From contig JBBRLQ010000009.1 in assembly GCA_038231275.1 (NCBI GenBank), positions 96,001 through 160,000 of the forward strand: a stretch of DNA of 64,000 nucleotides, read 5' to 3'. Positions 14,951 through 62,225 of the stretch are shown piece by piece; within the stretch, counting starts at the first letter, position 1, and each line of letters starts with the position of its first letter. Made by a program: the position numbers and the translations under genes. A model generated the notes under the pieces. The model was not told where the DNA came from and did not search any database. It saw only the letters and a list, made by a program, of their open reading frames with translations. The DNA comes from Polyangiales bacterium. Lineage in GTDB: Bacteria; Myxococcota_A; Polyangia; Polyangiales; Polyangiaceae.

Positions 14951-15118
14951 CGGCGATCGGCGATCCAGAAACGCACGCGCTCGAGCGCTCGGCGAAGGTT
15001 GGAGTAGCCGATTCGTGCGGGTGTAGCCGTTCGAAGCACCACACGCGTCGCGCTCGCCGGTTTTCTGCGGGGATCGTCGCGGCACGCTGCGTGAAGAAGC
15101 AGGCCGCGGAGGTCCTGC

Positions 15119-26465: not shown

Positions 26466-26716
26466 CTCTCGGCGTAGAGGGAGAGCTGCTCGCGGACGAC
26501 CGGCTCGCTCACGCCCGAGCGAATGTGCTCCTTCAGGCAGTCGGCGAGGGTCAGAAGGAGATCGTCGACCCCCTTGTCCTCGATGAGCTTCGCCAGGAGC
26601 GCCTTCGCCTCGCGGCTGTCGTCCCCCCGGAGAAACTGGCGCACGTTGTCCAGCGAGATCTCGCCCTGGAAATCCAGGTACATGTTCTCCATCAAATAAC
26701 GGACGAGCTCTTTCAC
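26462..26716 (-). CDS. Small acidic helical hypothetical protein (84 aa)
   Basis: Strong RBS AGGAGG before GTG, host-like codon usage. Confidence 0.8.
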   Translation of the reverse strand: MKELVRYLMENMYLDFQGEISLDNVRQFLRGDDSREAKALLAKLIEDKGVDDLLLTLADCLKEHIRSGVSEPVVREQLSLYAES

Positions 26717-26830
26717 GCAAGACCTCCTGGGGACGGGGGGTGAGCGGCGATAGATACCGCCCGGTCCCCTCGCGGCGCAAGGGATTACGCCAGGCGAGCG
26801 TGAATTTCCGCGTGGATTTGCGCCGCAATT

Positions 26831-30204: not shown

Positions 30205-31911
30205 TCAATCGGCTTTCGGGGAACGCCCGTCGAGGACCTCGCGGATCTTGAGCCACATGGCCTCGAGGGTGAAGGGCTTGGCGAGGTAGGGGGCGCTCGG
30301 GTCGAAACCCGCCGTGCCCTGCGGATCGCCGGACATGTAGATCGCGCGCGTCTCGGGGCGGACCGTCGCGAGGCGGCGGACGAGCTCGACTCCGCCCATC
30401 CCTGGCATGCGCAAATCGGTGAGCACGACGTCGACGGGTCCCTCTTGCTCCGCGCACGCGCGGAGCGCGTCCTCGCCGCTCTCGGCCGTGAGGACCCGAT
30501 AACCCGCGGTCCGCAGGCTGCGTTCGAGCGCGACGCGAACCGGCCGGCTGTCCTCGACCAGGAGCACCGTCTCGCCGCGTCCGCGCATCGGGCTGGGGCG
30601 CGGAACGAGCGAGACGGGCGAAGGAGGCCCAGCGCACGGCAGGTAAATCGTCACTGCGGTCCCGCGGCCGGGCCCCGTCGTCACGGCGATGTCGCCACCG
30701 CCTTGCTTCACGATGCCGTAGACCGTGGAGAGCCCGAGGCCAGTCGAGGCGCCGCCTTTCGTCGTGAAGAACGGTTCGAACATTCGGGACCGCGTCGCGT
30801 CGTCGATGCCCGCGCCCGTATCGCGAACGGTGATCTTGACGTAGACGCCGGGCGGCGCACCGAAAATCCGCGCGCTGCGCTCGGCGTCGAGAGCGGCGTT
30901 CGCGGTCTCGATCGTGACCGTCCCGTGTCCATCGACGAGCGCGGCACCGGCGTTGCCCACGAGGTTCATGAGCACCTGCTCGACTTGCGCGGCGTCGGCT
31001 TTGACGATGCGGAGATCCCGAGCGAGCGACTGCACGAGCTCGGCGTTGGCCCCGATGAGGCCGCGCAGCACCGGCGAGAGGAGCGTCGTCAGCGAGTTGA
31101 GGTCGAGGCGCGTCGGTCGAACGGGCTGCCGTCTCCCGAACGCCAGCAGCTGCTGCGTGAGCGCGCCGGCGCGCTGCGACGCGATCGCGATGTCGCGCAC
31201 CGCCGCATACGCCGCGTGGCTCTCGGCAAGGCACTCGGTCGCGTAGCCGGCGCTGCTCATGATCGCCGTCAGCAGGTTGTTGAACTCGTGCGCGACTCCG
31301 CCGGCCAACCGACCTACGGCATCCATCTTCTGTGCGACCCCGAGCTGCTCTTCGGCCCGCCGTTGCGCCGTAACGTCCGCCAAGATGACGCGGCACTCCT
31401 GCCCACCGTCCGCCGGCGCGAGCGTGCACCGGAGGCGCAGCGCCTCGGCTGCTTCGGCGGCGTCCGTGGCGAGGCTCGCCTCACTGGTCGTCTCGACGCC
31501 GTCCGCGAACGTCTTGTCGAGGGCGACCGCGAGCTCGGGCCGGTCCCGCGCGTCGAAGAAGAGGACGAGGCGTCGCTCGAGGAGTCGCGAGCGCTCCCCG
31601 CCCAGCATGCGCGCCGCGGCGAGGTTCAGCCTCGAAATCGATCCGTCGCGTCCAACCGAGAGGTAACCCACCGGCGCGAAGTCGTAGAGGCTCGCGTAGT
31701 CGGCGAGGCTCGCCTCGAGATCGGTCCGCGCGGCGACGAGCTCCTCGTTCTGGATCTCGAGCTCGATCTCGTGGACCTGGAGCTCGTGAACCAGTCGGCG
31801 CAGATCCGCGACGCGGGGACGAGCGGCGGTCGTCGCGCGCGCACGCATGCGCTCCTCCGCTCTCTGCCGGAGCGTGCTCGCCTTCGCGTCCCGCGGCCGG
31901 GCCTTCTTCAC
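30205..31911 (-). CDS. PAS hybrid histidine kinase
   Basis: LVHELQVHEIELEIQNEEL coil, LYDFAPVGY PAS, AHEFNNLL, FEPFFTTK, REC; GTGA overlap with the CheB/CheR stop. Confidence 0.92.
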   Translation of the reverse strand: MKKARPRDAKASTLRQRAEERMRARATTAARPRVADLRRLVHELQVHEIELEIQNEELVAARTDLEASLADYASLYDFAPVGYLSVGRDGSISRLNLAAARMLGGERSRLLERRLVLFFDARDRPELAVALDKTFADGVETTSEASLATDAAEAAEALRLRCTLAPADGGQECRVILADVTAQRRAEEQLGVAQKMDAVGRLAGGVAHEFNNLLTAIMSSAGYATECLAESHAAYAAVRDIAIASQRAGALTQQLLAFGRRQPVRPTRLDLNSLTTLLSPVLRGLIGANAELVQSLARDLRIVKADAAQVEQVLMNLVGNAGAALVDGHGTVTIETANAALDAERSARIFGAPPGVYVKITVRDTGAGIDDATRSRMFEPFFTTKGGASTGLGLSTVYGIVKQGGGDIAVTTGPGRGTAVTIYLPCAGPPSPVSLVPRPSPMRGRGETVLLVEDSRPVRVALERSLRTAGYRVLTAESGEDALRACAEQEGPVDVVLTDLRMPGMGGVELVRRLATVRPETRAIYMSGDPQGTAGFDPSAPYLAKPFTLEAMWLKIREVLDGRSPKAD

Positions 31912-34496
31912 GACTTGCCCTTCCGCCGGAGATTGGCCTCGAGCGCCTTCGCCGCACTGATGTCGAGGAACGTGATGACGGCGCCGTCGATCCGGTTGTC
32001 GAGGGTGCGGTACGGCATGATGCGCACGGTGAACCACCGCCCGTCCTTGGTGCCGACCTGCTTCTCGGCCGAGACGAGGCGTCGCAGCACCTCGCGCGCG
32101 TCATCGTGAAGATCCGGGTAAATGAAATCCTGAGCGAGATCGGTGATGGGCCGGCCGGCGTCGCTCGGGATGAGCTTGATGAGCTTCGCCATCTGGGTCG
32201 TGAAGCGCCGCACGTTGAGATCGCCGTCGAGGAAGAGCGTCGCGATGTCGGTGCTGTCGAGGAGGTTCTTCATGTCGCTGCTGGCGCGGAGCAGCTCGTC
32301 CACCTTCGCTTGCAGCTCGTGGTTCAGGGACTGAAGCTCCTCGTTCATCGACTGCATCTCTTCTTTCGACGTCGTCAGCTCCTCGTTCGTGGACTGGAGC
32401 TCCTCGTTCGCCGACTGGAGCTCTTCGTTGGTGGAGGTCAGCTCCTCGGCGGCGATCTGCATCTCCTCGCGCGTCGCGTGCAGCTCATCGCGCGCCACGC
32501 GGAGCTCGCTCTCGCGCGTCGCGCCGCGAGCCCCCCTGAGCCGCTCGGGGGGCGGCGCCGCGGGCTTTCCAACCTCCGCGAAGAGGACCATCGCCGTGCC
32601 GCGCAAGGACGGCGGCTCCTTCAGCGGCTCGATCGTGACGTCAACGCGCCGCGCGCGGTCCATCCTCACGCCCGTAGCAATGACCGTCTGCTTCTTGCGA
32701 AACGCCTTGCGGAAGGCGGGCTCAAGCGCGTTGGCGAGGCCTCCGCGCGCCATCGCGAAGACGTTCCAGTTGGCCTTCCCCGCCGCCGGCTCGAGGAACG
32801 CGCCGATCCTGCCGCTGATGTAGAGGACGTCCCCGCGATCGTTCGCGAGGACGGCCGCTGGACCGAAGCGCTGGAGCAGCAGCCGATCGGCTTGCGACTG
32901 GAACGAGGGCTGCATCGCCTGGATCTCGGCCGCGGCCGAGACGCGTGCTCGTGGGAGCGGAGTAGGAGAAGAAGGGACCTCGGGACGGGAGGCGGCGCGG
33001 CCCTGCTCGAGGCGATGGTAGACGCGGCTCCGGTGCCCTTCCTGCGCGAACAGCCCCGTGAAGCCGCCGACCGTCTCCGACGTCCCGAGGACGAGCACCC
33101 CGCCGGGCCTCAGGCTGTAGTGAAAGAGAGGCAGGAGCTTCTGCTGGAGCGCCGGGCTCAAGTAGATGAGGACGTTCCTGCACACGAGGAGATCGAGCTT
33201 CGTGAATGGCGGGTCCTGGATGACGTTCTGGACCGCGAAGACGATCCGCTCGCGGACCTCCGCGTTGACGCGGTACCCGCGCGGATCGGCGACGAAGAAA
33301 CGGCGCAGTCGTTCGGGCGAGACCTCGGCGGCGATGCTCGCGGGATACACGCCCTGGCGCGCGCGCTCGATCGCGTCGGGATCGAGATCGGTCGCGAAGA
33401 CCTGGAGCATCAGCTTTCGCGGCGGCTCGAGCGCGGCGATCGCCTCTCTCAGGACGATGGCGAGGGTGTACGCCTCCTCGCCCGTCGAGCAGCCGGTGAC
33501 CCACGCGCGGACGGTGGAGCCCGCCGCGCGCGCGCCGAGGAGCGTCGGGAGCACGTCGCCTCGAAGCTTCTCCCAGACGTCGGGATCGCGGAAAAACGAG
33601 GTCACGCCGATGAGGAGCTCCCGGAACAGGAGCTGCAGCTCCTTCGGGTTGTCGCGGAGGTACCGGAGGTATGCCGGGAGCGCGTCGAGCTGGTGGAGCC
33701 CCATTCGTCGCTCGATGCGCCGGTAGATCGTATTCCGCTTGTACAGCGAGAAGTCGTGGCCGGTCTCCGCTTGGAGCAAGCCGACGATCTGCTCGATGGC
33801 GCTCTTCGCCGCGGCCTCGAGCGAAGCGTTCGACGCGGGCGACGGAGTGGGTGCGCGCCGGCCGCCAAGAATCCGCTGCACGAGCTCGTGGGCTGGCGCG
33901 ACCCCATCGACCTGCCCCGCGTCGATGGCGCTCCGTGGCATGCTGTCGAACTTCGCGGAGGCGGGCGTCTCCGCGAAGGTCCGCCCGCCCTTCTCTTTGA
34001 TCGCGCGGAGGCCGAGCGTGCCGTCCGAGCCCATGCCGGACAGGATCACGCCGACCGCGTGCTCTCCTTGATCCTCGGCGAGCGTTTGGAAAAACGAGTC
34101 GATGGGCAGGCGACGTCCGCGCGCGCCCGCGGGAGCGAGCAGATGGAGTGAGCCGTGCCGGATCGCGAGATCTTTGTTCGGCGGGATGACGTACACGTTG
34201 CCCGGCTCCACCCGCGAACCGTCGCGCGCTTGCGCCACCGGCATCGCGCTGACGCGTTGGAGGAGCTCGACGAGGAGCCCCTTGTGCGTCGGGTCCATGT
34301 GCTGCACGACGACGAACGCGAGGCCGCAGGCCTGCGGCACGTTCTCGAAAAAGCGCTCGAGGGCTTCGAGGCCGCCCGCCGACGCTCCGATCCCGACGAC
34401 CGCAAACGCGTGCGGAACGGACGTCCTCGCGATGGGCTTTCGCGACGCGGTTCGCGCGCGGCGCGCTCGTGCATCGGGCCTGTCGGACTTCCTCAC
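31908..34496 (-). CDS. CheB methylesterase-CheR methyltransferase-PAS fusion
   Basis: GASAGG, VQHM, GMGSDG (CheB triad); GVTSFFRD, GCSTGEEAY, CRNVLIY (CheR); NEELQS heptads; start 34496 or 34526. Confidence 0.93.
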   Translation of the reverse strand: MRKSDRPDARARRARTASRKPIARTSVPHAFAVVGIGASAGGLEALERFFENVPQACGLAFVVVQHMDPTHKGLLVELLQRVSAMPVAQARDGSRVEPGNVYVIPPNKDLAIRHGSLHLLAPAGARGRRLPIDSFFQTLAEDQGEHAVGVILSGMGSDGTLGLRAIKEKGGRTFAETPASAKFDSMPRSAIDAGQVDGVAPAHELVQRILGGRRAPTPSPASNASLEAAAKSAIEQIVGLLQAETGHDFSLYKRNTIYRRIERRMGLHQLDALPAYLRYLRDNPKELQLLFRELLIGVTSFFRDPDVWEKLRGDVLPTLLGARAAGSTVRAWVTGCSTGEEAYTLAIVLREAIAALEPPRKLMLQVFATDLDPDAIERARQGVYPASIAAEVSPERLRRFFVADPRGYRVNAEVRERIVFAVQNVIQDPPFTKLDLLVCRNVLIYLSPALQQKLLPLFHYSLRPGGVLVLGTSETVGGFTGLFAQEGHRSRVYHRLEQGRAASRPEVPSSPTPLPRARVSAAAEIQAMQPSFQSQADRLLLQRFGPAAVLANDRGDVLYISGRIGAFLEPAAGKANWNVFAMARGGLANALEPAFRKAFRKKQTVIATGVRMDRARRVDVTIEPLKEPPSLRGTAMVLFAEVGKPAAPPPERLRGARGATRESELRVARDELHATREEMQIAAEELTSTNEELQSANEELQSTNEELTTSKEEMQSMNEELQSLNHELQAKVDELLRASSDMKNLLDSTDIATLFLDGDLNVRRFTTQMAKLIKLIPSDAGRPITDLAQDFIYPDLHDDAREVLRRLVSAEKQVGTKDGRWFTVRIMPYRTLDNRIDGAVITFLDISAAKALEANLRRKGKS

Positions 34497-34606
34497 CGCG
34501 TCCCTACCCCTTTTGATCGGCCCCATGCCGCGCCCCGGCGAGAACTGTACTCGCTTTGGGCGAAGCGCGCGCTGCTCTCTCGGCGCTCGCCTGATACCCT
34601 TCCTGA

Positions 34607-35752
34607 GTGTCGACCCTCGAGTCCTCTGCCTCAACCCTCCGGCGTGCGATCGCGTCTGCGAGTCGCGGCCTCGTCGAGCGCGAGGCCCTCGTCGAGCTCA
34701 TCGCGCTCTCGGCTGTCGCCGGCGAGCACATGCTCGTGGTGGGGCCGCCGGGTACGGCGAAGAGCGAGGCCGTCCGTCGCATCGCCGGCGCGTTCGGGGG
34801 CAGGTACTTCGAGTACTTGCTGGGTCGGTTCACCGAGCCGAGCGAGATCTTCGGCCCGGTCGATCTGCGAAAGTTGCGCGAGGGGACCGTGGAGACGGAG
34901 ACGCGCGGGATGCTCCCCGAGGCGGAGATCGCCTTTCTCGACGAGGTGTTCCTCGGCTCGACGGCCATCCTGAACACGCTCCTCGGCGTCCTGAACGAAC
35001 GGACGTTCCGTCGCGGTCACACGCAGCTCGCGTGCCCGCTGCGTGTGTGCGTCGGCGCGTCGAACCAGCTCCCGGAGGACGAGATGCTGGCGGCGTTCGC
35101 CGATCGCTTCCTCGTGCGCGCGTTCGTGGAGCCGATCGCCGACGCGCGGATCGAGGATCTCCTGGAGGGCGCGTGGGCGATGGGGCAGAGCCCGAGAAAG
35201 GTGCATTCTGCACCGATGCTCGACGACCTCGACACGCTGGCGCGTGCGGCCGGCGCGGCGGACATGACCGGCGTACGCGACACGCTCGCGCACGCGCTTC
35301 GGAAGCTGCGCGCGGCGGGGATCGTGCTGTCGGATCGGCGCGCGACCAAGATTCAGCGGCTCGTCGCTGCGGCCGCCGCGCTGGCGGGGCGAGCGACACC
35401 AACCGGCGCCGATCTCTGGCCGATCGTGTACGCGGTACCGACGGAGCCGGCGCAGCGGACCGCCCGTGAGGCGCTGCGTGCGTTGCTCGAGGCGTCGGAG
35501 AACACGGCGCTCCAGTCGGCGGCGCTCGAGGCTTCGCAAGGCCCGCGCGCGCGGGCGACGCGCATCGTGACCGCCGGTCGCGCGCTCCTCGCCGAGGCGT
35601 CGCCCGGGGCCGGCGACGGCGCGGCAGAGGGCAGGCGGCTCAAGGTCGAGGGCATCCTCCGCGAGATCGACGCGGCGTTCGGCGAGGAGCAGCTCACCGA
35701 GGATCTGCGCACGCTGCGCGCGGATCTCGCCCGTACACTGCCCTCGTCGTGA
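34607..35752 (+). CDS. MoxR/RavA-like AAA+ ATPase
   Basis: Walker A GPPGTAKS, RFTEPSEIFGP, Walker B FLDEVF, ASN, DRF, LSDRR. Confidence 0.92.
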   Translation: MSTLESSASTLRRAIASASRGLVEREALVELIALSAVAGEHMLVVGPPGTAKSEAVRRIAGAFGGRYFEYLLGRFTEPSEIFGPVDLRKLREGTVETETRGMLPEAEIAFLDEVFLGSTAILNTLLGVLNERTFRRGHTQLACPLRVCVGASNQLPEDEMLAAFADRFLVRAFVEPIADARIEDLLEGAWAMGQSPRKVHSAPMLDDLDTLARAAGAADMTGVRDTLAHALRKLRAAGIVLSDRRATKIQRLVAAAAALAGRATPTGADLWPIVYAVPTEPAQRTAREALRALLEASENTALQSAALEASQGPRARATRIVTAGRALLAEASPGAGDGAAEGRRLKVEGILREIDAAFGEEQLTEDLRTLRADLARTLPSS

Positions 35753-36162
35753 AGCTCGCGTGGGGACTTCGTGAGCCACCGCTCGGCGCGACGGCGGCCG
35801 CAGCAGAAGGGGACGCGGCGCGCGCGATGGCCAAGCGCTTGATGGCGCGTGCGCCCGCTGACCTCGCGCGCCTGCGCGGCGTGGCGTCGACGTCGGTGCT
35901 CGTCGTCCTCGGCGAGGCGGACGATCTCCCGTGGGTGGAGGGGGCGAGCTACCTCGGTCGCGATCCGATCGCGCCGTCGCTTTGGTTGCCGACGACGCGC
36001 GCGCCGAGCGTCTCGGCCGCGTTGCTCGAGCGCGCGCTCGTTCATTTGCCGTCGCGGGGTCCATGCGCGGTGCTCCTCGCGCCGTCGCGCATCGTGCCGC
36101 TCTCGGCGGCGCGCCCCGTCGTGCACGAGCGCTTGGCGGCGTTCCTCGCGGAGGCGTCGTAG
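35749..36162 (+). CDS. Small ternary-system component (bpX5-like)
   Basis: GTGA-coupled to the ATPase; W..REPPL...LPWVEGASYLGRDP.AP.LWLPT. Confidence 0.7.
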   Translation: MKLAWGLREPPLGATAAAAEGDAARAMAKRLMARAPADLARLRGVASTSVLVVLGEADDLPWVEGASYLGRDPIAPSLWLPTTRAPSVSAALLERALVHLPSRGPCAVLLAPSRIVPLSAARPVVHERLAAFLAEAS

Positions 36163-37931
36163 TGCGCCTCCCTCGCGCGCTCGCGGCGTGGGAGGCGGAG
36201 CTCTCGCTGTTTCCGGAGGAGGTGGCGCTGGGCCTCGGTGGTGTCGTCGCGCGCCTCGCGCTCGCGATCGGACCGATGCGGGCGCGCGCGCAGCGGGGCC
36301 TCGGCACGCCCGACGGGTACGACGGCCTCTCCCGCCGCGGTGACTACGCGCGCCTCGTCATGACCGAGTGGCTGCTCGCCGACGAGATCCCCGAGGAGTT
36401 CGTGCGCCGCGTGGCGATGGGTGAGCACGCGTTCCTGGCGCGCGCGTTCGAGCAGCCGGCCTCGTCGCGGAGGAGCGTGGTGCTCTTCGACGCCGGCCCG
36501 GAGCAGCTCGGGGCGCCGCGCGTCGCGCAGCTGGCGGCGCTCGTCACGTTCGCGCAGCGTGCCGCCGATGCGCGAGCAGAGCTGGCGTGGGGGACGTTGC
36601 AAGCGCATCACGCCTCACTCGCCGAGGCGGTGACGCCGGCCGGCGTCGCGGCGCTCCTCGATGCACGGACGCGGAACCTCGCGCGGGCGGCCGATGTCGA
36701 GGTCGCGGTACGCCGGGCGGGAGCTCGTGGGGCGCACGACGAGCTGTGGATCGTGGGCAGCGCGGCGCTCGCCGAGGCGGCGGCGCGTGTCGGCGCGTCG
36801 TTCGTTCAGATCGACGACGTCCTCGAGCCAGAGGCCCACGAGCTGCGCGTGCGCGTCGTCCCTTCGCGCGGCGCCGAGCGGGGTGTCGTCCTCGAGCTCC
36901 CGTCCCCCCAAGTGACGACGCGGCTGCTCCGCGACCCGTTCCAGGTGGCGACGTCCACGGCGACCGGCGCCGATCATGCGCCGTCGCGCGCGCCCGGCAA
37001 CGTTGTCTTCTCCGCCGACGGGCGGAAGATCTTCGCGCGGACCGACGACGGGAGCCTCCTCTCCCTCGCGCTCCCCGGCTCGCCGCGCGCGGCCCCTGCC
37101 CCCGTCGCGCGTTATCGTCCTCCGTCCGGTCAGCGCGTCGTCGCCGCGGGATGGTCGCGCTCGCAGAAGCGCGTCCAGGTGATGACGCAAAAAGGTGACG
37201 GCGCGATGGTGCTGCACACGCTCTCGCGTCGCGGGAGCCAGTCCATCTCGGAGACGAGCTTCGCCGCCCTCGATCCGCCGGCTCCGGCGGGAGATCTCGC
37301 GGCGCTCTACCGTGAGCGGGAGGGCGCGATGTGCATGCTCGATGCGTGCGGGCGCCTCCTACGTCTGAACAAAGAGGCGGACGTCGACTGGATCAGCGTG
37401 GTCGCCGTCGTGTCGGGCTCCGGCCGCAGCGAGTGCGCCGCGATCGCGCTCGGTGAGTTCGTCGAGCTCGTGACGAAGCAGGGAGACGCGCCGGTCTCGA
37501 CGGTGCGCGTCCCGGTGCAGCTCGCGCGCGCGCCACGCGTCTTCTTCGGCGCGCGGCCGCCTCGGTGGCTCGCGGTGGTGGAGACCGGCGAGGACGAGTG
37601 GACCCTCGTGCGTCCGGAGCCAGGAGACGCGATCCGCGAGCGATGGGTCGTCCCCGCCGGGCGCGAGGTCTGCGGAGTGCTCGAGACCGAGTGGGCGCCG
37701 CCGAAGCCCGCGCTCGTGATGCTCGACGGCGAAGGTCAGGCGCTCCGGCTGTTTCGGCCGGAGGGCACCGAGCAGATCGTCACCTCGGAGCCGCGCATCC
37801 TGCACGCGACGGTGAGCCCGGGCGCCCGCGACATCGCGTACGGCACGGAGCGCGGCGAGCTCGTCGTCCACTCGCTCGCGGCGCGTGCCGTGATCGCGCG
37901 CATCGCGCCGAGCGCGCCCGAGGCGAAATGA
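36162..37931 (+). CDS. ViaA-like/degenerate vWA domain plus beta-propeller protein
   Basis: GTG overlaps upstream TAG; GYDGLSRRG...RLVMTEWLLA..F.RR, then VVLFDAGPEQLGAPR; C-terminal FS.DG/VSPG beta repeats. Confidence 0.7.
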   Translation: MRLPRALAAWEAELSLFPEEVALGLGGVVARLALAIGPMRARAQRGLGTPDGYDGLSRRGDYARLVMTEWLLADEIPEEFVRRVAMGEHAFLARAFEQPASSRRSVVLFDAGPEQLGAPRVAQLAALVTFAQRAADARAELAWGTLQAHHASLAEAVTPAGVAALLDARTRNLARAADVEVAVRRAGARGAHDELWIVGSAALAEAAARVGASFVQIDDVLEPEAHELRVRVVPSRGAERGVVLELPSPQVTTRLLRDPFQVATSTATGADHAPSRAPGNVVFSADGRKIFARTDDGSLLSLALPGSPRAAPAPVARYRPPSGQRVVAAGWSRSQKRVQVMTQKGDGAMVLHTLSRRGSQSISETSFAALDPPAPAGDLAALYREREGAMCMLDACGRLLRLNKEADVDWISVVAVVSGSGRSECAAIALGEFVELVTKQGDAPVSTVRVPVQLARAPRVFFGARPPRWLAVVETGEDEWTLVRPEPGDAIRERWVVPAGREVCGVLETEWAPPKPALVMLDGEGQALRLFRPEGTEQIVTSEPRILHATVSPGARDIAYGTERGELVVHSLAARAVIARIAPSAPEAK

Positions 37932-40900
37932 AGCTCCTCCGCGTCGCCCACGCGGGCCGCGTCCTCTGCCGCGGCTTCTTTTTCGGGCCGCCACTAGGCG
38001 AGGACGAGGCGCGCGCGCGCATCCTCGCGCGGTTTCGTCCGGGCGCCACGGTTCGCCGGACCGAGGGAGGGCTCGTGCTCCTCCTCGCAGAGCCTACGTG
38101 GGTTCGTGTGGACGCGTCGCCCGGCGCTCCGCTCGTCGCGCAGGCGCACGTCCTGTCGTCGGCGCCGCTGACGAACGCAGAGCTCGTCGCCCTCGCGGCG
38201 CCGCCCGAGGCGCTCGTGCTTGCGCGCGCCGGTGCCGCGGTGGTGCTCGCGCCGCGCGCCGGCGACGAAGAGGACCCGGCGCGGTGGCTCGACACCTCCG
38301 AGGTCATCGTGCTCGGCGTGACATCGCTCGGCGCGCCGCCGCCCGCGCCCCGCGTCGCGCCCGCCCCGCCGCCGCTCGACGTCCGCGCCGCGTTGAAAGC
38401 GCCGGCCGCGTCGGCAGAGCTCGCCGCGGTGCGCGCGGCGCTCGAACAGATGCGCGCCGGCGTGGAGTCGTCGGCGGGTCGCTCCCTGGCGCGCGCCGAA
38501 ACGTCCAGCGGGGGAATGGACGCCTTCGCGCGCGCCGCTCGTACGGCGCTGGCAGGCGTCGCGCGCCTCTTCGCGTCCGTTCTCGGTCTCTTCGGGCGCG
38601 CGGCGTCGGCGTCGGAGTCCGCGTCCCGTCGAACCTCCGAGGCCGCGAGCTCGCGGGCTCTCGCGGCGCGTCCGGCGCCGCCGAGCGGACCAAGCTTCCT
38701 CGAGCGTCTCCGCGCGCGCGTCCTCGACGTCGCGGCGCGGCTCCTCGTTCTTTCGCGAATCGCCCGCTTTTTCGAGCGCGCCCACGCGCAGTACCTCTCG
38801 AAAATGATCGACATGTTCGAACGCGGCGATCTCGAGGACGCGCTGCGCCACGCGATCCCGCTCGGTCAAGGAGACGGTTCGAGCGGTCCACCCGCGCTCC
38901 TCCCCGGAGGACCGCGCGCGGATCTCTCGATCTCGCCATGGCGCGCTCCCGCCCGAGGCGCGATCGGCCTCGGCGGCGCCCTGTTCGAGGATCTTCGCAC
39001 CATGTACCGGCGCGCGTTCGAGCGGCTCGTGGCCATGGGCGCGATCGAGCGCGCGGCCTTCGTCCTCGCGGAGCTGCTCGGCGCGAACGAAGAGGCCGTG
39101 TCGTTCCTCGAACGCCACGGGAAATACGAGCTCGCTGCGCAGATCGCCGAGGCGCGGGACCTGCCGCCGGGGCTCGTCGTTCGCCAGTGGCTCCTCGCGG
39201 GCGACACCCCGCGGGCGATCGCGATCGCCCGCGCGAAGGGGGCGTTCGCCGACGCCGTCGCGCGCCTCGAGCGCGCGGGGCCGCCGTACGCGAGCCTCGC
39301 CGTGCCGCTCCGCCTCCGGTGGGCCGACGTCCTCGCCGAAAGCGGGGCGTACGCCGCCGCCGTCGACGTCGTGTGGCCGGTCGAGAGCGCCCGTCCGCTC
39401 GCGCGCGCGTGGATCGAGCGCGCGCTCCTCGTCGGCGGCGCGACGGCAGGGACGATGCTCGCGCGGAAGGCGTCGCTGCCTGGCACGTTCGCGGAGGTGC
39501 GCGCGCAGGTCCTCACGCTTTTTGGTGACGCCGAGCCGGAGATCGACGCCACGCGCGTGGCCTTCGCGTCTGCGCTCGCCGCAGGACCCGCGACTGCGGA
39601 GACGCGCGTCCTCGCGAGGCCGGCTGCGCGCGCGCTCCTCGCAGGTCGCGCCGCCGCCGCCGCGCTCGGCCGCCGAAAGAGCGCCGCCCTCGCCGAGCGC
39701 CTCGCCGTCTTCTCCAACGATCCGGCGCTGCGCGCCGACATGCGCCCGCTCGTCGTCACGCCGCGCGTCCCCAACATCCGAATCTCCGTTGCAGGCTTCT
39801 CCATGATCGGCGAACGGAACATCAACGAGGACGCGATCGACTTCGGTCACCTGATGGAGGGTGGCCGTCGCGCCCATGGCACCAACCTCACGGTTCATGG
39901 CTTCTTCCTCCATGTTCTCGACGGGAGCGGGGGCGGCGAACCCCCTCGTCACCCCGCGACGATCGCTGCGGACGCGGTCCATGACGTCCTCACGCGCGAC
40001 GCCGGCGCAGGTCGGACCCGCGATGCGCTCGCGCGGGACCTGCGCGCCGCCGTTCGTGAGGCCAACCGGCGCATCTTCGAGGCGTCGACGCGCGATGTCC
40101 GGATGCGCGGCATGGGCAGCACGAGCACGTGCGCGGCGCTCGTCGACGGCGCGCTCGTCGTGTCGCAGGTCGGCGACTCGCGCGCGTACCTCCTGCGCGG
40201 AATGCGCTTCGAGCAGCTGACGCGCGACGACTCGCTCCTCGAGGCCTACAAGGACCAGCCCGGCTCGTTCACGGAGGTTGAGCTCGCCGACCTCCCGCAG
40301 AACATCATCACCAAGGCGCTCGGCATGGCGAGCGAGCTAGAGCCGCGCATCTCCGTCGTCCCGCTCCAGCGCGGGGACGTGGTGCTCTTGACGACCGACG
40401 GCGTCCACGCGCTCCTGCCGTCCGAGGCGCTTCCGACGCTCGCCCGCGGCGCCCGCGACGCACGCGGCCTCATCGAGGCCATTCGCGCCCGCATGGCTGT
40501 CGCGCAGGCCGCGGACAACTACAGCGCGGTGGTCGCGCGCTTCGACGGGACCGATCTGCCGGTGGAGCTTTCACCAGGCCCCTCGGCGTCCCCTTACGAG
40601 CCGGCGCCATCGTCGCTCGCCAACGTCGGCGAGGTGTCGCTCACCAGCCGCGTCGATCCGCTCGTGCACGCGCGCGAGGAGGGGGACGTCGGCGCGCTCG
40701 CCATTCACGACGCAGCGCTTCTTCCGGACGGCCGGCTCCTCGTCGCGCTCGGCGAGCTCGGCGTGCGGCTCCTCTCGCCGGCCGGAAAGACGCTCGCCCA
40801 TTTCGGCGAGCCCGCGCACCACCTCGTCGTGAGCACCTTCGGCGATCGCGCGATCGCGCTGGCCTCTCGCGGCGACGCCTGGCGCGTCGCGAAGATCGAT

Positions 40901-41413
40901 CTCGTCGGCCGCCGCGTACGCGCATGGCACGACGCGCGCTTCGATCGGTGGGCCCCGTCGTTCGACGGCGCGCGCTTCTTCTGCTCCCTCGGCGCGCGCG
41001 TCTTCGCGGTCGACGCCATCGCGGACGACTGGAGCGCGACATGGACCGTGACCGTCGACGAAGGAAAGCCGAGCGCGTTGTCGGTCGACGCGAATGAGCT
41101 CTGCGTCGTCGTCACGCGCGCGAAGGACGCGCACGTCCTGTGGCGCTACGATCTCGCGACGATGACGCTTCGCGGTCGCACCCCGAGCATGGTGCCGCCG
41201 CGGCTCGGCTGGTCGTGGGAATCGTCCGACGACATGGTCTCCCTGCTCGACGCGGACGGCCGTGCCCGACTCGCACTCCGGCTTCGTGGCGCCCGCTCTC
41301 CATGTGCGCGCGTGGACGGCGCCGACTTCGTGGTCTTCGACGACCGCGGCAGGCTGATCGTCCTCTCACGCGCGACCGGCGAGGTCCTCCGCGAGCACCG
41401 CGTCGCCCCGTGA
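37928..41413 (+). CDS. Large ternary-system protein (bpX6-like N-terminus, helical repeats, inserted PP2C phosphatase, C-terminal beta-propeller)
   Basis: ATGA-coupled, 1161 aa; PGAPL..LSSAPL, MFERGDLEDALRHAIPL, PP2C motifs NED/DG.GG/GDSRAY/DG/DN, DAALLPDGRLLVALGE. Confidence 0.8.
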   Translation: MKLLRVAHAGRVLCRGFFFGPPLGEDEARARILARFRPGATVRRTEGGLVLLLAEPTWVRVDASPGAPLVAQAHVLSSAPLTNAELVALAAPPEALVLARAGAAVVLAPRAGDEEDPARWLDTSEVIVLGVTSLGAPPPAPRVAPAPPPLDVRAALKAPAASAELAAVRAALEQMRAGVESSAGRSLARAETSSGGMDAFARAARTALAGVARLFASVLGLFGRAASASESASRRTSEAASSRALAARPAPPSGPSFLERLRARVLDVAARLLVLSRIARFFERAHAQYLSKMIDMFERGDLEDALRHAIPLGQGDGSSGPPALLPGGPRADLSISPWRAPARGAIGLGGALFEDLRTMYRRAFERLVAMGAIERAAFVLAELLGANEEAVSFLERHGKYELAAQIAEARDLPPGLVVRQWLLAGDTPRAIAIARAKGAFADAVARLERAGPPYASLAVPLRLRWADVLAESGAYAAAVDVVWPVESARPLARAWIERALLVGGATAGTMLARKASLPGTFAEVRAQVLTLFGDAEPEIDATRVAFASALAAGPATAETRVLARPAARALLAGRAAAAALGRRKSAALAERLAVFSNDPALRADMRPLVVTPRVPNIRISVAGFSMIGERNINEDAIDFGHLMEGGRRAHGTNLTVHGFFLHVLDGSGGGEPPRHPATIAADAVHDVLTRDAGAGRTRDALARDLRAAVREANRRIFEASTRDVRMRGMGSTSTCAALVDGALVVSQVGDSRAYLLRGMRFEQLTRDDSLLEAYKDQPGSFTEVELADLPQNIITKALGMASELEPRISVVPLQRGDVVLLTTDGVHALLPSEALPTLARGARDARGLIEAIRARMAVAQAADNYSAVVARFDGTDLPVELSPGPSASPYEPAPSSLANVGEVSLTSRVDPLVHAREEGDVGALAIHDAALLPDGRLLVALGELGVRLLSPAGKTLAHFGEPAHHLVVSTFGDRAIALASRGDAWRVAKIDLVGRRVRAWHDARFDRWAPSFDGARFFCSLGARVFAVDAIADDWSATWTVTVDEGKPSALSVDANELCVVVTRAKDAHVLWRYDLATMTLRGRTPSMVPPRLGWSWESSDDMVSLLDADGRARLALRLRGARSPCARVDGADFVVFDDRGRLIVLSRATGEVLREHRVAP

Positions 41414-41542
41414 AAGAGCCCTCGTCCAAGAAAGGCCGGTCCCGGAAGGCCCGACTCGGCGTATCCTAGAGGTGCCCCGCATCGCACCTTGACCCCCATC
41501 CGCAGCGGATGGCACCATTTCAGGTAAGAGGCCCCCCGCTCC

Positions 41543-43021
41543 ATGTCCGAGTCGCAGCAGCGGTACCGCGTCGTCGAGAAGCTCGAGTCGGGCGGCATGG
41601 CCGAGGTTTTCCGCGCGGAGAGCGAGGGGCTGCAGGGCTTCAAGAAGCAGGTCGCGATCAAGCGCGTCCTGCCGCACCTGTCCGAGAAGAAGAAGTTCAT
41701 CTCGATGTTCCTCGACGAGGCGCGCCTCTCCGCGCAGCTCTCGCACTCGAACTGCGTGCAGGTCTTCGACATCGGCGTCGGCGACAACGCGTACTTCATC
41801 GTCATGGAGTTCGTCGACGGGGCGAACCTCAAGGCCATCGCCGAGGCGATCAAGAAGAGCGGGCGCGACTTCCCGGTTCCTGCGGCGGCGCTCATCGCGC
41901 TCGAGATCACGAAGGGCCTCTCCTACGCGCACGAGATGCGCGACCCCAACGGGATGGATCTCCACATCGTGCACCGCGACATGTCGCCGCCGAACGTGCT
42001 GGTGACCAAGTACGGCGAGATCAAAATCGTGGACTTCGGTCTCGCGAAGGCGAACTCGCAGCTCGAGAAGAGCGAGCCCGGCATCATCAAGGGGAAGTTC
42101 TCGTACCTGTCGCCCGAGGCGGCGATGGGGCAAGAGGTCGACGCGCGGACCGACATCTTCGCGGTCGGCATCATCTTGTGGGAGCTGCTCGCGGGGCAGC
42201 GGCTGTTCTTGGGCGAGACCGATTTCCAGACGGTGAAGAAGGTCCAGCAGGCCGTCGTCCCGTCGATCTCGAACATCAACAAGCGCGTGCCGCCGGAGCT
42301 GGAGCGCATCATCAACAAGACGCTCGCGCGCGAGCCCGCCGCCCGTTACCAGACGGCGCGTGATCTCGGGATGGAGCTGTCGAAGTTCCTCTTCTCGAAC
42401 GGCCAGCCCGTGAGCACATTCGACATCGCGTCACTCGTCGTCGGCGCGATGAAGGACAAGGCCAAGCATCGCGCGCCGCAAGGATCCATCATCGACAAGC
42501 TCATCGAGGAGGCGCTCCTCGAGTTCACGTCGCTCACCGACGACGCGCGCGAGGCGGCGCAGAAGCTCTCCGGGTCGAAGAAGCCGCCGCCCCTCGCCGC
42601 CGGCTCCGCGCCGCTGCGCGCCGATCAGTTCGTGGATCCGACGAACTGGGCGAAGGAGATCTCGCTCGGTGACATCACCGGCGGTGCCGACGACTCGATT
42701 CGTGCCTCGCTCCCGCCCGACGTCTTCCAGGCAGGGAATCTCTCCGCGCTCGAGGACGAGCCGCACTCCTCGCCGATGCCGTCGCCGCGCGGTGGAACGC
42801 CGCAGCCGTCTCCCGCGATGCAGGGGTCGCCCGGCTCGAACCCGCACCACATGAGGTCGTCGTACCCGCCGCCGATGATCCCGATGCCCCGGCACGGCAT
42901 GCAGCAGGCGCCGCCGCAAAAGAAGGGCGGCCTCGCCGGCGCGATCGTGGGCGTCGCCGTGGTCCTGTTCGCCGCCGCCGCCGCTGCCGCCGCGTGGTTC
43001 ACGCACTTGATTCCGCACTGA
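41543..43021 (+). CDS. Ser/Thr protein kinase with C-terminal TM
   Basis: GGMAEV, VAIK, HRDMSPPN, DFG, KGKFSYLSPE. Confidence 0.95.
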   Translation: MSESQQRYRVVEKLESGGMAEVFRAESEGLQGFKKQVAIKRVLPHLSEKKKFISMFLDEARLSAQLSHSNCVQVFDIGVGDNAYFIVMEFVDGANLKAIAEAIKKSGRDFPVPAAALIALEITKGLSYAHEMRDPNGMDLHIVHRDMSPPNVLVTKYGEIKIVDFGLAKANSQLEKSEPGIIKGKFSYLSPEAAMGQEVDARTDIFAVGIILWELLAGQRLFLGETDFQTVKKVQQAVVPSISNINKRVPPELERIINKTLAREPAARYQTARDLGMELSKFLFSNGQPVSTFDIASLVVGAMKDKAKHRAPQGSIIDKLIEEALLEFTSLTDDAREAAQKLSGSKKPPPLAAGSAPLRADQFVDPTNWAKEISLGDITGGADDSIRASLPPDVFQAGNLSALEDEPHSSPMPSPRGGTPQPSPAMQGSPGSNPHHMRSSYPPPMIPMPRHGMQQAPPQKKGGLAGAIVGVAVVLFAAAAAAAAWFTHLIPH

Positions 43022-43034
43022 AGTGCGGAATCAA
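43007..43034 (+). terminator. Perfect inverted repeat spanning the kinase stop codon (terminator-like)
   Basis: TTGATTCCGCAC-TGAA-GTGCGGAATCAA, followed shortly by CCTTTGTTTG. Confidence 0.6.
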
Positions 43035-43040
43035 ATGACG

Positions 43041-43170
43041 CCTTTGTTTGTGTGGGCTTGCAGCCCCTCCACGCCGGACGGCGTGGAGACCTCCCCGCGT
43101 CGCCCTTCGGGCGAAGTCGCGGGGCGCGACGGCGGACCCTGACGACTTGCCGGGGGGGAGAATTTTGGGG
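43041..43170 (+). repeat. Structured intergenic element, copy 1 (three hairpins)
   Basis: Collinear with the reverse complement of 62062-62217; shared CCTTTGTTTG, loops and GAATTTTGGGG. Confidence 0.75.
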
Positions 43171-43185
43171 TATGCGAGGGGGGCC

Positions 43186-43950
43186 GTGGTGGGTTCTCGC
43201 AGTATTCGACTTTTTTTTGGGGGGGCGCTCGCTGGGGGGGTCCTCGTGGCGACGGTGCCGGTGGCGGAGGGGCGGGGAGGGGCGTGTCCGAGCGGGATGG
43301 CGCTGATCGCTCCGCCTGAGGATGGGGCGCTGACGGAGCGGTATTGCATCGATCGGTGGGAGGCGTCGCTCGTCGAAGTGACCACCCACGGGAGCGCGCC
43401 GTTCTCGCCGTACGAGATGGTGAAGGGGCGGACTGTGAAGGCTGTCTCGCGCTCGGGCGTCGTTCCGCAGGCGTACCTCTCACGCAACGAAGCCGCCGCC
43501 GCGTGCAAGGCGTCGAAGAAGCGTCTGTGCACCGAAGAGGAGTGGACGACGGCGTGTCAGGGCAAGCGCCCGACCACGTACCCGTACGGCGACACCGCCC
43601 GCCCCGGCTCGTGCAACGACAGCGGTACCGCGCCGCTCCCCGCGCTCTATCCGGAGAACGACGAGGCCGCGCACTCGTTCGAGCCGATGAACGATTCACG
43701 CCTCAACCAGCAGCCGAACACGCTCAGCCGCACGGGCGCGCATCGTCGCTGCACGAACAGCTACGGCGTCTTCGACATGGTCGGCAACCTGCACGAGTGG
43801 GTGGACGATCCGAACGGCACCTTCCGCGGCGGCTACTACCTCGACACCCACATCAACGGTGATGGGTGCCGTTACCGTACGGTCGCGCACGACGCCGCGT
43901 ACCACGACTATTCGACCGGCTTTCGCTGCTGCGCCGATCTCGCGCGTTAG
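43186..43950 (+). CDS. Secreted formylglycine-generating-enzyme (SUMF1/FGE-sulfatase) family protein
   Basis: CPSGM, KRLCTEEEW..AC, YPYG, GVFDMVGNLHEW, RGG, GFRCC; start approximate. Confidence 0.9.
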   Translation: MVGSRSIRLFFGGALAGGVLVATVPVAEGRGGACPSGMALIAPPEDGALTERYCIDRWEASLVEVTTHGSAPFSPYEMVKGRTVKAVSRSGVVPQAYLSRNEAAAACKASKKRLCTEEEWTTACQGKRPTTYPYGDTARPGSCNDSGTAPLPALYPENDEAAHSFEPMNDSRLNQQPNTLSRTGAHRRCTNSYGVFDMVGNLHEWVDDPNGTFRGGYYLDTHINGDGCRYRTVAHDAAYHDYSTGFRCCADLAR

Positions 43951-44023
43951 GCGCGAGATCTCGGCGTACCCTCAAGGGTTCGCGTGGCGCGCCGTTCGTC
44001 GCCGCCAGGGGGAGAATCCATCA

Positions 44024-45205
44024 ATGACGACCCGCATCGCCACGTCCATCGCCCGCGGCACGCCCGCCGCCGCCGCGTCGCAGCTCGCGAACGATCTCAC
44101 ATCCCAACTCGGCGGCGCTCCGCCGGTCCTCGTCGTCGTCTTCGCATCGACCGCGCAGCCGCTCGGCGAGGTCGTACGGCACCTGGCTCCGTCGGTGGGC
44201 GGCGCGGTGCTCCTCGGCGCCTCCACCGCTGGAGAGTTCACCGAGAAGGGGGACGCGAAGGGAGCGGTCTGCGCGTTCGCCCTCGCGGGCGACTACAAGG
44301 TGTACGCGGGGATGGGTCGTCGTCTCAAGGAAGCGCCCGCCGAGGCCGTCAAGCACGCCATCTCCGAGCTTCCGCGCACCATTCCTGGTTATGGGCACCG
44401 CACCGGCATTTTGCTGCTCGATCCGCTCGCGGGCAATGGTGAGGAGGTCACGCTGCTCACCGCCTCGCATCTCGGCGCCGACGAGCCGCTCGCGGGCGGC
44501 GCCGCGGGGGACGATCTGCACATGGCGTCGACGCTCGTGTCGTGCGGCACGGACGCGGCCTCCGACGCGCTCGTCGTCGCGCAAATCTTCTCGAAGCAGG
44601 CGCTCGGCCTCGGGGTCTGCCACGGTCACACGCCGCTCAGTGAGCCGCTCCGCGTCACCCGCGCGAGCGGAAACGTCGTCGAGCAGATCGACGGACGACC
44701 TGCGTGGGACGTATGGCTCGAGCGCACCACGACGCGCGCCCGAGAGCGCGGCGTCGACCTCGCCACGATGCCCGCGGCCGACGAGGGGGCTTACCTCTTG
44801 CGCTACGAGGCGGGCATCGCCGCAGGCACCGAGCTCAAGATCCGAGCGCCGCTCTCCCGCAGCGCCAACGGCGCGATCAGCTTCGCGTGCGGCATCCCCG
44901 AGGGCACGGTCTTCCGGATCACCGAGAGCGCGCCCGAGTCACAAGTGGCGAGCGCGCGCGAGGCGGCACGTCGGGCCCGCGCACAGCTCGGAGGCAGCAC
45001 CGCGGCCGGCGCGCTCGTCTTCGACTGCATCTGCCGCAACCTCATCCTCGGCGACGGCTTCTCGGCAGCGGTGAAGGGCATGAGCGAAGAGCTGGGCGGC
45101 GTGCCGCTCGCGGGCTTCGAGACCTACGGCGAGATCGCGCTCGACGCGGGGGATCTGAGCGGCTTCCACAACACGACGAGCGTAGTCCTCGCCTTCCCGA
45201 CCTGA
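44024..45205 (+). CDS. FIST (NosP-like) signal-transduction protein
   Basis: GASTAGE, GGAAGD, IDGRPA, DCICR, GFETYGEI, HN.T. Confidence 0.9.
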   Translation: MTTRIATSIARGTPAAAASQLANDLTSQLGGAPPVLVVVFASTAQPLGEVVRHLAPSVGGAVLLGASTAGEFTEKGDAKGAVCAFALAGDYKVYAGMGRRLKEAPAEAVKHAISELPRTIPGYGHRTGILLLDPLAGNGEEVTLLTASHLGADEPLAGGAAGDDLHMASTLVSCGTDAASDALVVAQIFSKQALGLGVCHGHTPLSEPLRVTRASGNVVEQIDGRPAWDVWLERTTTRARERGVDLATMPAADEGAYLLRYEAGIAAGTELKIRAPLSRSANGAISFACGIPEGTVFRITESAPESQVASAREAARRARAQLGGSTAAGALVFDCICRNLILGDGFSAAVKGMSEELGGVPLAGFETYGEIALDAGDLSGFHNTTSVVLAFPT

Positions 45206-45216
45206 GGGGTTCAGCC

Positions 45217-45783
45217 GTGGCGAGGGACCACCTTTCGAGGAGGACAATAAAGCGGAGCCAGCTCGTGGGGCTCCTCGAGCCGACCCTTGGCTTGGACAAG
45301 AGCGAGACGTTGGTGTTGACGGCGTCGCGCGAGCTCGTCATCCCGCAGGGTGACGAGATCCGTGTCGACCATGTGCTCGCGATCCTCGACCGTCTCGGAG
45401 AGATGGACGGAATCGCGGGGGTGGCCGCCCGGTTCGTGCGCGCGCGGGGTGAGCTCGACGCGCTGATCGCCCCGTCGGCGGCGAGCGCGCCGGCCCCCGC
45501 GCTCACGACGACGACCCCGGGCGGTGGCGTCGCGTTCGCGCGCCCCGCCGCAACGCCGCACGTGCCGTTCGAGGAGATCGCGATGTTCGTCGCGCCCGCG
45601 CTTGGCGATGCGGTGGCTCGAGCGTCGGTCGCGAAGCACGCCGCCGCGCTTGGCATCAAAGGCTACGACGCGACACGCGCCGAGGCGGCCCAGATCCTCG
45701 ACGGAATGTCGAAGGCGGAGGGCATCCTCGGCATCGTCGCGAGCTTCGCGAAAGCTCGCTTCATCCTCAAGTATCCGACGTGA
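45217..45783 (+). CDS. Hypothetical protein with two tandem ~70-aa helical domains
   Basis: Internal repeat P.LG...ILD.....GI.G..A.F..AR; 11 nt downstream of the FIST gene. Confidence 0.75.
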   Translation: MARDHLSRRTIKRSQLVGLLEPTLGLDKSETLVLTASRELVIPQGDEIRVDHVLAILDRLGEMDGIAGVAARFVRARGELDALIAPSAASAPAPALTTTTPGGGVAFARPAATPHVPFEEIAMFVAPALGDAVARASVAKHAAALGIKGYDATRAEAAQILDGMSKAEGILGIVASFAKARFILKYPT

Positions 45784-61970: not shown

Positions 61971-62061
61971 GATGAACCTCTTGGGAAGACGCGGCCAACT
62001 CCCGCGCGCGCGTACTCTGCAGCAACCCCACCTCAACCGCAACGCCCCCGCCCATCTCCCC

Positions 62062-62217: not shown

Positions 62218-62225
62218 AAACCCCA

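Follow-up and report, generated by a model that had tools for sequence, protein, structure and literature searches.

What output can a beta-propeller ternary system have? The MoxR-vWA-beta-propeller ternary system was defined by Kaur, Burroughs, Iyer and Aravind (2020, eLife, PMC7159879), whose main text states that systems of this kind "show no conventional effector modules". Here, we address this question with a four-gene operon from a Polyangiales bacterium (GenBank assembly GCA_038231275.1, contig JBBRLQ010000009.1, positions 96,001 to 160,000 of the forward strand). The whole 64,000-nucleotide stretch, with a G+C content of approximately 70%, is called the window below, and all positions refer to it. 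Judged by its sequence, 34607-41413 is a bona fide four-gene operon of this family, predicted to be translationally coupled, and its last gene carries a PP2C Ser/Thr phosphatase domain. The family is known from computational work, and a PP2C-bearing third component is a variant undescribed in the main text of Kaur et al. The four genes, each defined as an open reading frame (ORF), are as follows.

34607-35752, plus strand: gene 1, bpMoxR AAA+ ATPase, 381 amino acids
35749-36162, plus strand: gene 2, small bpX5 protein, 137 amino acids
36162-37931, plus strand: gene 3, candidate vWA-like/propeller protein, 589 amino acids
37928-41413, plus strand: gene 4, bpX6/PP2C/propeller protein, 1161 amino acids

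A PP2C domain in the third component

Gene 4 corresponds to the third component of the ternary system, and its product can be divided into five parts.

37928-38416, plus strand: residues 1-163, bpX6 domain (PF19922; Pfam E value 3.1e-23 over residues 7-163)
38423-38782, plus strand: residues ~166-285, linker rich in Ala, Arg, and Ser (by composition; mean pairwise identity 0.27)
38783-39802, plus strand: residues ~286-625, conserved helical region (identity 0.47, the best-conserved part of gene 4)
39803-40567, plus strand: residues ~626-880, PP2C (PPM) Ser/Thr phosphatase domain (Pfam, NCBIfam, and PDB matches)
40628-41413, plus strand: residues ~900-1161, C-terminal beta-propeller-like region (Pfam PQQ_2, BamB-like, E value 1.3e-4 when this part is searched by itself, below the cut-off)

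The PP2C domain, which sits between the helical region and the C-terminal propeller-like region, is matched by two Pfam models (PP2C_2, 1.4e-8; PP2C, 3.4e-7), by solved PP2C structures in the PDB with E values down to 1.3e-16 (Stp1, 2pk0), and by the NCBIfam model for Stp1/IreP-type PP2Cs (3.4e-34 over residues 660-870). Because the last match scores 118 bits, below the equivalog cut-off of 230, we assign the domain to PP2C and not to the Stp1 equivalog. The metal-binding Asp residues of PPM phosphatases belong to motifs 1, 2, 8, and 11. All four are kept in gene 4, and the motifs NED (D635), DGSGGG (D665), GDSR (749), TDG (D824), and DN (D863-N864) are intact. The domain is apparently intact catalytically and is predicted to be active. 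A preliminary description of this DNA, made from the sequence alone, had overlooked both the PP2C domain of the 1161-residue protein and the kinase gene that follows the operon.

In a search of 1.84 billion representative proteins, the nearest relative of the PP2C domain was a 66%-identical orthologue, beyond which ordinary PP2Cs of 35-42% identity were interleaved with more distant fused forms. This pattern is what would be expected of a conserved, working catalytic core, and the similarity to ordinary active PP2Cs argues for continued purifying selection on that core. By length, relatives of gene 4 form two groups, one of approximately 1130-1320 amino acids with PP2C and one of approximately 790-1025 amino acids without it. 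The three closest relatives, from metagenome sources, are 67%, 52%, and 50% identical; named PP2C-bearing members are found in Polyangium aurulentum, Sorangium sp. So ce131, and S. cellulosum (SOCE26_059040), and databases already label the PP2C-bearing long forms as PPM-type or PrpC-like.

The PP2C insert is present in 27 of 68 aligned relatives, and 19 of these 27 keep all four metal-binding Asp residues; the motif columns were also visible in an alignment of 28 long forms. In a quick IQ-TREE phylogeny of the non-PP2C columns only, midpoint-rooted for drawing, all 27 PP2C-bearing rows fall in one clade of 32 (support of 99 in the Shimodaira-Hasegawa-like approximate likelihood ratio test). 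This single-clade distribution fits one insertion between two conserved domains. Five rows lacking PP2C are nested beside a group with degenerate PP2C domains. The history of the domain would involve a minimum of two changes, most simply one gain and one later loss, a reading that depends on the position of the root. Among 60 genomic loci with sufficient downstream DNA (described below), two contain the PP2C segment, one in Polyangiaceae (L031) and one in Sandaracinaceae (L053).

The rest of gene 4 has the parts reported for a third component, namely a variable N-terminal domain, a tetratricopeptide repeat (TPR) region, and a propeller, with the propeller represented by the sub-threshold PQQ_2 match and the TPRs by weak hints. 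The bpX6 domain has a mean pairwise identity of 0.33, and residues 166-330 are rich in Ala, Arg, Leu, and Ser. For residues ~286-625, which correspond to the helical region called TPR by Kaur et al. (PMC7159879), the hints are a designed TPR-like repeat in the PDB (E value 0.043) and Pfam TPR_GEMI5 (0.79). In contrast to the membrane-spanning segment that the same paper places in the third component, gene 4 has no clear membrane segment, as no 19-residue window in its hydrophobicity scan reaches a Kyte-Doolittle value of 1.6.

Kinases beside and within related copies

One further gene begins shortly after the operon.

41543-43021, plus strand: Hanks-type Ser/Thr kinase, 492 amino acids (Pfam Pkinase, 1.9e-37), starting 130 nt after gene 4

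This kinase carries the VAIK, HRD, and DFG motifs, ends in a hydrophobic tail at its C-terminus, and is predicted to be active and membrane-anchored. It is possibly linked to the operon in function. Given the PP2C domain and the adjacent kinase, the likeliest output of the operon shifts from an unspecified effector to phospho-signalling.

Kinase genes and fusions recur among myxobacterial copies of the cassette, linking it to phospho-signalling. For example, in a Sandaracinus locus (L062) the stop codon of a membrane-anchored kinase gene overlaps the MoxR start codon (GTGA), and among the kinases of the window the best match to this protein is the operon-adjacent one (39% identity, 193 bits, versus 105 and 96 bits for the other two). 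In an uncultured member of the Myxococcales (L079), genes for a PEGA-domain kinase, a TPR protein, and a 357-amino acid ORF without assignment lie between genes 3 and 4 (11897-15422 of that locus). Fusions to gene 3 homologues are also found: two homologues (P0159, 921 amino acids; P0188, 902 amino acids) carry kinase-like domains that have weak Pfam scores and may be inactive, and a third (P0142, 799 amino acids) is fused to GGDEF.

Two further genes directly follow the adjacent kinase.

43048-43950: protein with an FGE-sulfatase (FGS) domain and an N-terminal hydrophobic stretch
43859-45205: FIST sensor protein

The kinase, FGS, and FIST genes form a trio with short gaps or overlaps. Matches to FIST and FGE are rare and distant in related loci (L042, L046). 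FGS domains are listed as effector or sensor modules in other MoxR-vWA systems by Kaur et al. (PMC7159879). Elsewhere the window is dense in Ser/Thr phospho-signalling parts (6819-7850, 9641-11188, 18639-20918, and 20920-22650), namely an FHA-GGDEF protein, two further Hanks kinases, one of them with TPRs, and an FHA-sigma54 activator encoded directly after the second kinase. These FHA proteins could provide a readout of kinase and PP2C activity.

A self-contained four-gene cassette

A scan of a one-genome-per-species data set with a 15-sequence alignment of gene 3 gave 158 relatives, and 80 loci were kept. By record titles, these loci belong to Acidobacteriota (24), Myxococcota (21), Armatimonadota (10), Melainabacteria (8), Abditibacteriota (5), and others, and the cassette is patchy over at least ten phyla. 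The phyla recovered differ from the list in Kaur et al. (PMC7159879), and the make-up of our sample depends on the two peptide patterns with which the scan was run. The presence of each gene was scored by tblastn with the window proteins and counted solely at loci with enough DNA on the relevant side, with the following results.

MoxR (loci with room upstream): 63 of 66
bpX5, lying between the genes for MoxR and the vWA protein (loci with room upstream): 64 of 66
Third component, helical region (loci with room downstream): 60 of 60
Third component, C-terminal region (loci with room downstream): 60 of 60
Full set of four genes in the same order (loci with room on both sides): 52 of 54

The four genes thus co-occur in the same order in other genomes, as the family assignment in the preliminary description required. 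Loci with room on at least one side that miss a gene are L025, L046, L052, and L074. The flanks of the 80 loci contain no conserved fifth gene; the commonest family there, Ser/Thr kinases, occurs at 11 of the 80, with no fixed side or strand. The cassette is therefore a self-contained four-gene unit. In the metagenome-assembled Myxococcaceae genome with L046, the vWA-propeller and bpX6 genes are present, no MoxR gene lies within 10 kb upstream, and the sole bpX5-like match is 9.7 kb upstream; this cassette may be rearranged or degraded.

Operon layout and genes 1 and 2

The ORFs and junction sequences agree with the overlapping stop and start codons reported for this operon in the preliminary description. 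Genes 1 and 2 overlap by 4 nt (GTGA, in cgtcGTGAagc), genes 2 and 3 by 1 nt (TAGTG, in gtcgTAGTGcgc), and genes 3 and 4 by 4 nt (ATGA, in aaATGAagc). Because such successive overlaps of 4, 1, and 4 nt are its usual signature, the four genes are predicted to be translationally coupled. In-frame third-position G+C is 0.83-0.88 for genes 1, 3, and 4; gene 2, of 137 amino acids, failed the filter. A promoter and terminator scan of 34000-45500 gave terminator-like sites at chance level and no promoter-like sites, and an Rfam scan of the whole window found no match. The G+C content of the region of genes 3 and 4 (36001-40000) is 0.742-0.745, compared to mostly 0.67-0.72 across the rest of the window, and the first-codon-position G+C of the two genes is 0.79-0.81, reflecting Ala/Arg/Gly-rich proteins. 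Their raised G+C may stem from amino acid composition or from foreign origin.

Gene 1 matches the Pfam families bpMoxR (PF20030; 7.3e-87, 290 bits against a cut-off of 27), AAA_5 (2e-24), and AAA_lid_8 (1.6e-5). It is predicted to be an active ATPase because it keeps the catalytic Lys (K52) of Walker A (G46PPGTAKS53) and the Asp and Glu (D112 and E113) of Walker B (IAFLDE). Its P-loop, GPPGTAKS, fits the GXXXTAKS form given by Kaur et al. (2020, PMC7159879) for the MoxR of the beta-propeller ternary system, and therefore supports membership in that family. Relatives of gene 1 at other loci are 56-68% identical. The NCBIfam RavA model also matches residues 13-270 (5.1e-46), with a score of 158 bits that is far under its cut-off of 681.

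Gene 2 matches Pfam bpX5 (PF19921; 7.9e-32), whose conserved motifs are LPW.DG..YLG and LLLPT. The bpX5 and bpX6 labels, which the preliminary description had given on the basis of motifs, are thus confirmed by Pfam, as is the assignment to the MoxR-vWA-beta-propeller family: the bpMoxR, bpX5, and bpX6 matches are well above their cut-offs, the P-loop is of the expected form, and the gene order is conserved. Among the Pfam families proposed there for checking, AAA_5, bpX5, and bpX6 matched, and vWA did not. A paralogous relationship between the bpX5 and bpX6 domains was ruled out by hhalign (probability 0.65%, E value 0.088). Fused forms of bpX5 were sought among longer proteins and none were found, which is weak evidence, and the language-model features of a protein atlas gave no score above 0.83 for the bpX5 fold. 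In this atlas, scores below 0.9 are leads and no more.

A candidate vWA-like domain and a predicted propeller in gene 3

Gene 3 has no family match in Pfam-A (E <= 0.1), NCBIfam, or PADLOC, and its earlier label "ViaA-like" is an analogy alone. An AlphaFold2 model built on an alignment of 64 homologues (mean predicted local distance difference test score, or pLDDT, of 88; predicted TM-score of 0.75) divides the protein into three parts.

36162-36446, plus strand: residues 1-95, alpha-helical N-domain (modeled helices at 5-36 and 62-85)
36447-36947, plus strand: residues 96-262, candidate divergent vWA-like alpha/beta domain (alpha/beta at 104-257 in the model)
36948-37931, plus strand: residues 263-589, predicted seven-bladed beta-propeller (28 strands at 268-583 in the model)

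The N-domain is the best-conserved part of gene 3, with a mean pairwise identity of 0.54 among the 64 homologues, and has no Pfam hit when searched alone. In the domain that follows, the first strand of the modeled alpha/beta fold ends at D110, in VVLFDAGPEQLG, where D110-A-G-P-E stands at the place of the DxSxS of the metal ion-dependent adhesion site (MIDAS). The degenerate MIDAS had been noticed in the preliminary description and proves to be family-wide: G112 and P113 do not vary across the 64 homologues, and the conservation of D110 is 90% or more. Gene 3 lacks the functional MIDAS signature (DxSxS...T...D), its serines being replaced by G112 and P113. This fits a remark by Kaur et al. 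(PMC7159879) that in the FtsH and propeller systems the vWA domains have diverged and can be missing MIDAS residues.

Modeled alone, residues 96-262 reach a pLDDT of 91.6, and the Foldseek matches that combine high probability with low root-mean-square deviation are to vWA domains.

Ku80 vWA (6tyv): probability 0.92, TM-score query/target 0.41/0.34
26S proteasome chains (which we take to be Rpn10): probability 0.84-0.93, TM-score query/target 0.39-0.45/0.40-0.43
CLCA1 VWA (6pyo): probability 0.85, TM-score query/target 0.43/0.44
ITIH1: probability 0.63-0.80, TM-score query/target 0.35-0.38/0.12-0.13

Several observations limit the support for a vWA fold. Foldseek gave no match for this model at E <= 1e-3, no VWA model in Pfam matched any of 36 family members, and gene 3, searched as a profile against the PDB, gave a chance hit (E value 6.9). 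Generic Rossmann folds are mixed in with the vWA matches, which are interleaved with methyltransferases, formyltransferases, and KaiC. In the language-model features, the clusters nearest to residues 1-262 are bpX0 and ivWA (0.88), and VWA_CoxE scores 0.81. On the model, the reading of residues 96-262 as vWA-like is weakly supported.

The "beta-repeat tail" of the preliminary description is, in the model, a full seven-bladed propeller, different from the propeller of "about four blades" described by Kaur et al. (PMC7159879). The top PDB fold matches of the whole gene 3 model are all WD40-type propellers. The propeller is the fastest-evolving globular part of gene 3, with a mean pairwise identity of 0.25 compared to 0.42-0.54 for the N-terminal parts. 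The similarity between the propellers of genes 3 and 4 is marginal (BLASTP E value 0.012).

Chromosomal surroundings

The operon is surrounded by an ordinary signalling-rich chromosome with chemotaxis, two-component, and kinase genes; its neighbors in the window encode the CheB-CheR-PAS fusion listed below, hybrid histidine kinases, FHA proteins, and peptidases.

31908-34634, minus strand: upstream and divergent, 908-amino acid fusion of CheB methylesterase, CheR methyltransferase, and PAS
30205-32037, minus strand: PAS hybrid histidine kinase, following the fusion
25083-27875, minus strand: ORF of 930 amino acids without a Pfam match at the thresholds used
59157-62330, minus strand: ORF of 1058 amino acids, likewise
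15119-16933, plus strand: ORF of 605 amino acids, likewise

The TTG start listed for the fusion overlaps the start of gene 1 by 28 nt, and its true start is probably further in, because its first domain begins at residue 80. The 930-amino acid frame failed the third-position G+C gene filter and may not be a gene.

What the operon may do

We favor the reading that the operon encodes an ATP-gated sensor switch whose output, in the PP2C-bearing clade, is dephosphorylation by PP2C, and we consider the chances of this to be about even. One or both propellers would bind a macromolecular ligand. Of the two, the gene 3 propeller would be the better candidate for the ligand sensor, because it is the most variable globular element of its protein (identity of 0.25, compared to 0.54 for the N-domain). 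With bpX5 and the MIDAS-less vWA-like adaptor as intermediaries, the MoxR ring would use ATP to remodel or release the bpX6 protein, and this step would switch PP2C on or off towards phospho-Ser/Thr proteins made by a Hanks kinase, for which the downstream membrane-anchored kinase would be a plausible source. The output would be an altered phospho-signalling state of the cell and not a toxin. Complex formation, ligand sensing, gating, the substrate, and the identity of the kinase are what we infer in this proposal. A broader version is tentative, and we doubt it more than we believe it: "effector-less" propeller ternary systems in general may be ATP-gated switches plugged into Hanks-kinase/PP2C networks, with the placement of the enzyme varying between the third component (in the Polyangium/Sorangium clade), a kinase or GGDEF fusion to the vWA component, and a coupled neighboring gene (as in L062 and L079).

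Several findings speak against an ATP-gated switch with phospho-signalling output. PP2C is dispensable: 58 of the 60 loci with room downstream lack it, 8 of the 27 relatives that carry it have a degenerate form, and the five nested rows have lost it again; it therefore cannot be the general output of beta-propeller ternary systems. Neither L031 nor L053, the two loci that carry PP2C, has a kinase nearby. A kinase was found at 13 of 80 loci, counted anywhere in the fetched DNA on either side and strand, and with three kinases in a 64-kb window, chance adjacency is plausible.

Alternatively, the operon could be a classical conflict or defence system, in which the complex would sense a phage or other invader and set off containment or the death of the cell. 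PP2C would then be the effector and might, for example, arrest growth by removing phosphate from proteins of the host or the invader. Kaur et al. (PMC7159879) class the family among MoxR-vWA conflict systems, citing the variable N-terminus of the third component and enrichment in multicellular bacteria, and a self-contained cassette with no conserved flanking gene, a patchy spread over at least ten phyla, and a fast-evolving propeller in gene 3 are consistent with such a role. However, a search of PADLOC-DB v2 with the four proteins gave a sole match, a weak P-loop/AAA similarity to mad8 (2.5e-4), with none for the other three. In the flanks of the related loci, 75 of the 118 collected ORFs (those up to 720 amino acids, some of which may be spurious in high-GC DNA) were scanned at a cut-off of 1e-8; 69 had no PADLOC match, and six matched generic models, two of them a desaturase and the others a kinase, a cysteine desulfurase, an AAA+ protein, and the uncharacterised candidate model PDC-M51A. 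The window contains no mobile-element or defence genes near the operon, and no toxin-like domain is present. The literature that we searched contained no experimental work on the beta-propeller ternary system; the bpX labels appeared, beyond Kaur et al., in one Pseudomonas syringae genomics paper. The anti-invader or surveillance role proposed in the preliminary description is thus unsupported, with no specific PADLOC match, generic flanks, and an ordinary chromosome, and we regard a defence function as unlikely.

Two other explanations appear still less probable. A housekeeping chaperone or assembly module, comparable to RavA-ViaA or CoxD-CoxE and acting on the bpX6/PP2C/propeller protein or its partners as clients with no sensing of a threat, would fit the resemblance of the AAA+ module of gene 1 to RavA (5.1e-46, below cut-off), the MoxR-vWA pairs with assembly roles listed in PMC7159879, and the position of the operon amid chemotaxis, two-component, and kinase genes on an ordinary chromosome. 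Yet the MIDAS serines are missing family-wide, so that canonical client binding would not apply; no client operon, for an enzyme or a respiratory complex, is conserved beside the cassette; and two propellers, one of them fast-evolving, look more like ligand sensors than a fixed client. We find this improbable. The domain could also be a non-catalytic pseudo-phosphatase that serves as bait or scaffold, for example by binding phosphoproteins or by being targeted by an invader. This would account for the loss of metal-binding Asp in 8 of 27 relatives and of the whole domain in the nested group of five, and has precedents in the acquisition of modules "typically in inactive form" noted by Kaur et al. 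(PMC7159879) and in the pseudophosphatase domain of EsrG1 in the Esr pathway (bioRxiv 10.64898/2026.09.08.750141). The copy in the window, however, keeps D635, D665/G666, GDSR, D824, and D863/N864, and is as close to ordinary active PP2Cs (35-42%) as to distant fused forms, and we consider a pseudo-phosphatase very improbable here.

Comparison with known systems

With the propeller ternary system of Kaur et al. (PMC7159879), this operon shares a MoxR with a GXXXTAKS P-loop, a protein with N-terminal helices, a candidate divergent vWA domain, and a C-terminal propeller, a third component in which a helical (TPR) region and a propeller-like region follow a variable N-domain, and a small accessory protein, all in one operon. 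The FtsH ternary system is related to it by divergent vWA domains and a TAKS P-loop that, according to the same paper, the two systems share. The nearest atlas clusters to residues 1-262 of gene 3 are bpX0 and the ivWA proteins of the FtsH system (PF19997), a lead at the score given above. Unlike the FtsH ternary system, the operon has no FtsH-type gene, and gene 3 has no Pfam-A family at E <= 0.1.

A closer parallel in logic is the Esr pathway of Schaalia odontolytica, an epibiont-sensing pathway with genetic and phosphoproteomic evidence (bioRxiv 10.64898/2026.09.08.750141). Its genes jointly encode a propeller sensor, MoxR and vWA proteins, a Ser/Thr kinase, and a phosphatase, with protein phosphorylation as the output. 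The Esr sensor differs in being a secreted, surface-linked filament with Ig repeats, the kinase and phosphatase are separate proteins, and the readout is through an FHA protein. What the operon has in common with this actinobacterial pathway is its logic, with no homology implied. RavA-ViaA of Escherichia coli also pairs a MoxR AAA+ ATPase with a vWA-type partner, and gene 1 matches RavA over residues 13-270. However, that match, at 158 bits, falls far short of the cut-off (681), gene 3 shows neither detectable ViaA or VWA sequence similarity nor MIDAS serines, and RavA-ViaA has no propellers, bpX5, bpX6, or PP2C. Stand-alone PP2Cs of the Stp1/IreP, PstP, and PphA types share the catalytic core and all metal-binding motifs with gene 4, at 35-42% identity, and differ in context: the domain here forms part of an 1161-residue protein encoded in a MoxR operon and is flanked by a helical region and a propeller-like region.

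Implications

Propeller ternary systems are widespread in soil and sediment bacteria and are represented by Pfam models, with no known output. An apparently intact PP2C domain in the third component would provide the first concrete, assayable biochemical activity for the family. On the broader version of our reading, the phosphatase would be governed by a MoxR AAA+ chaperone and a vWA adaptor that lacks the MIDAS, a form of phosphatase regulation that we did not find in the literature searched. The PP2C clade, together with the recurrent kinase fusions and coupled kinases in Myxococcota, yields a testable hypothesis of MoxR-gated dephosphorylation, and the gain, decay, and loss of PP2C could serve as a natural experiment on how such systems take up enzymatic modules and later drop them.

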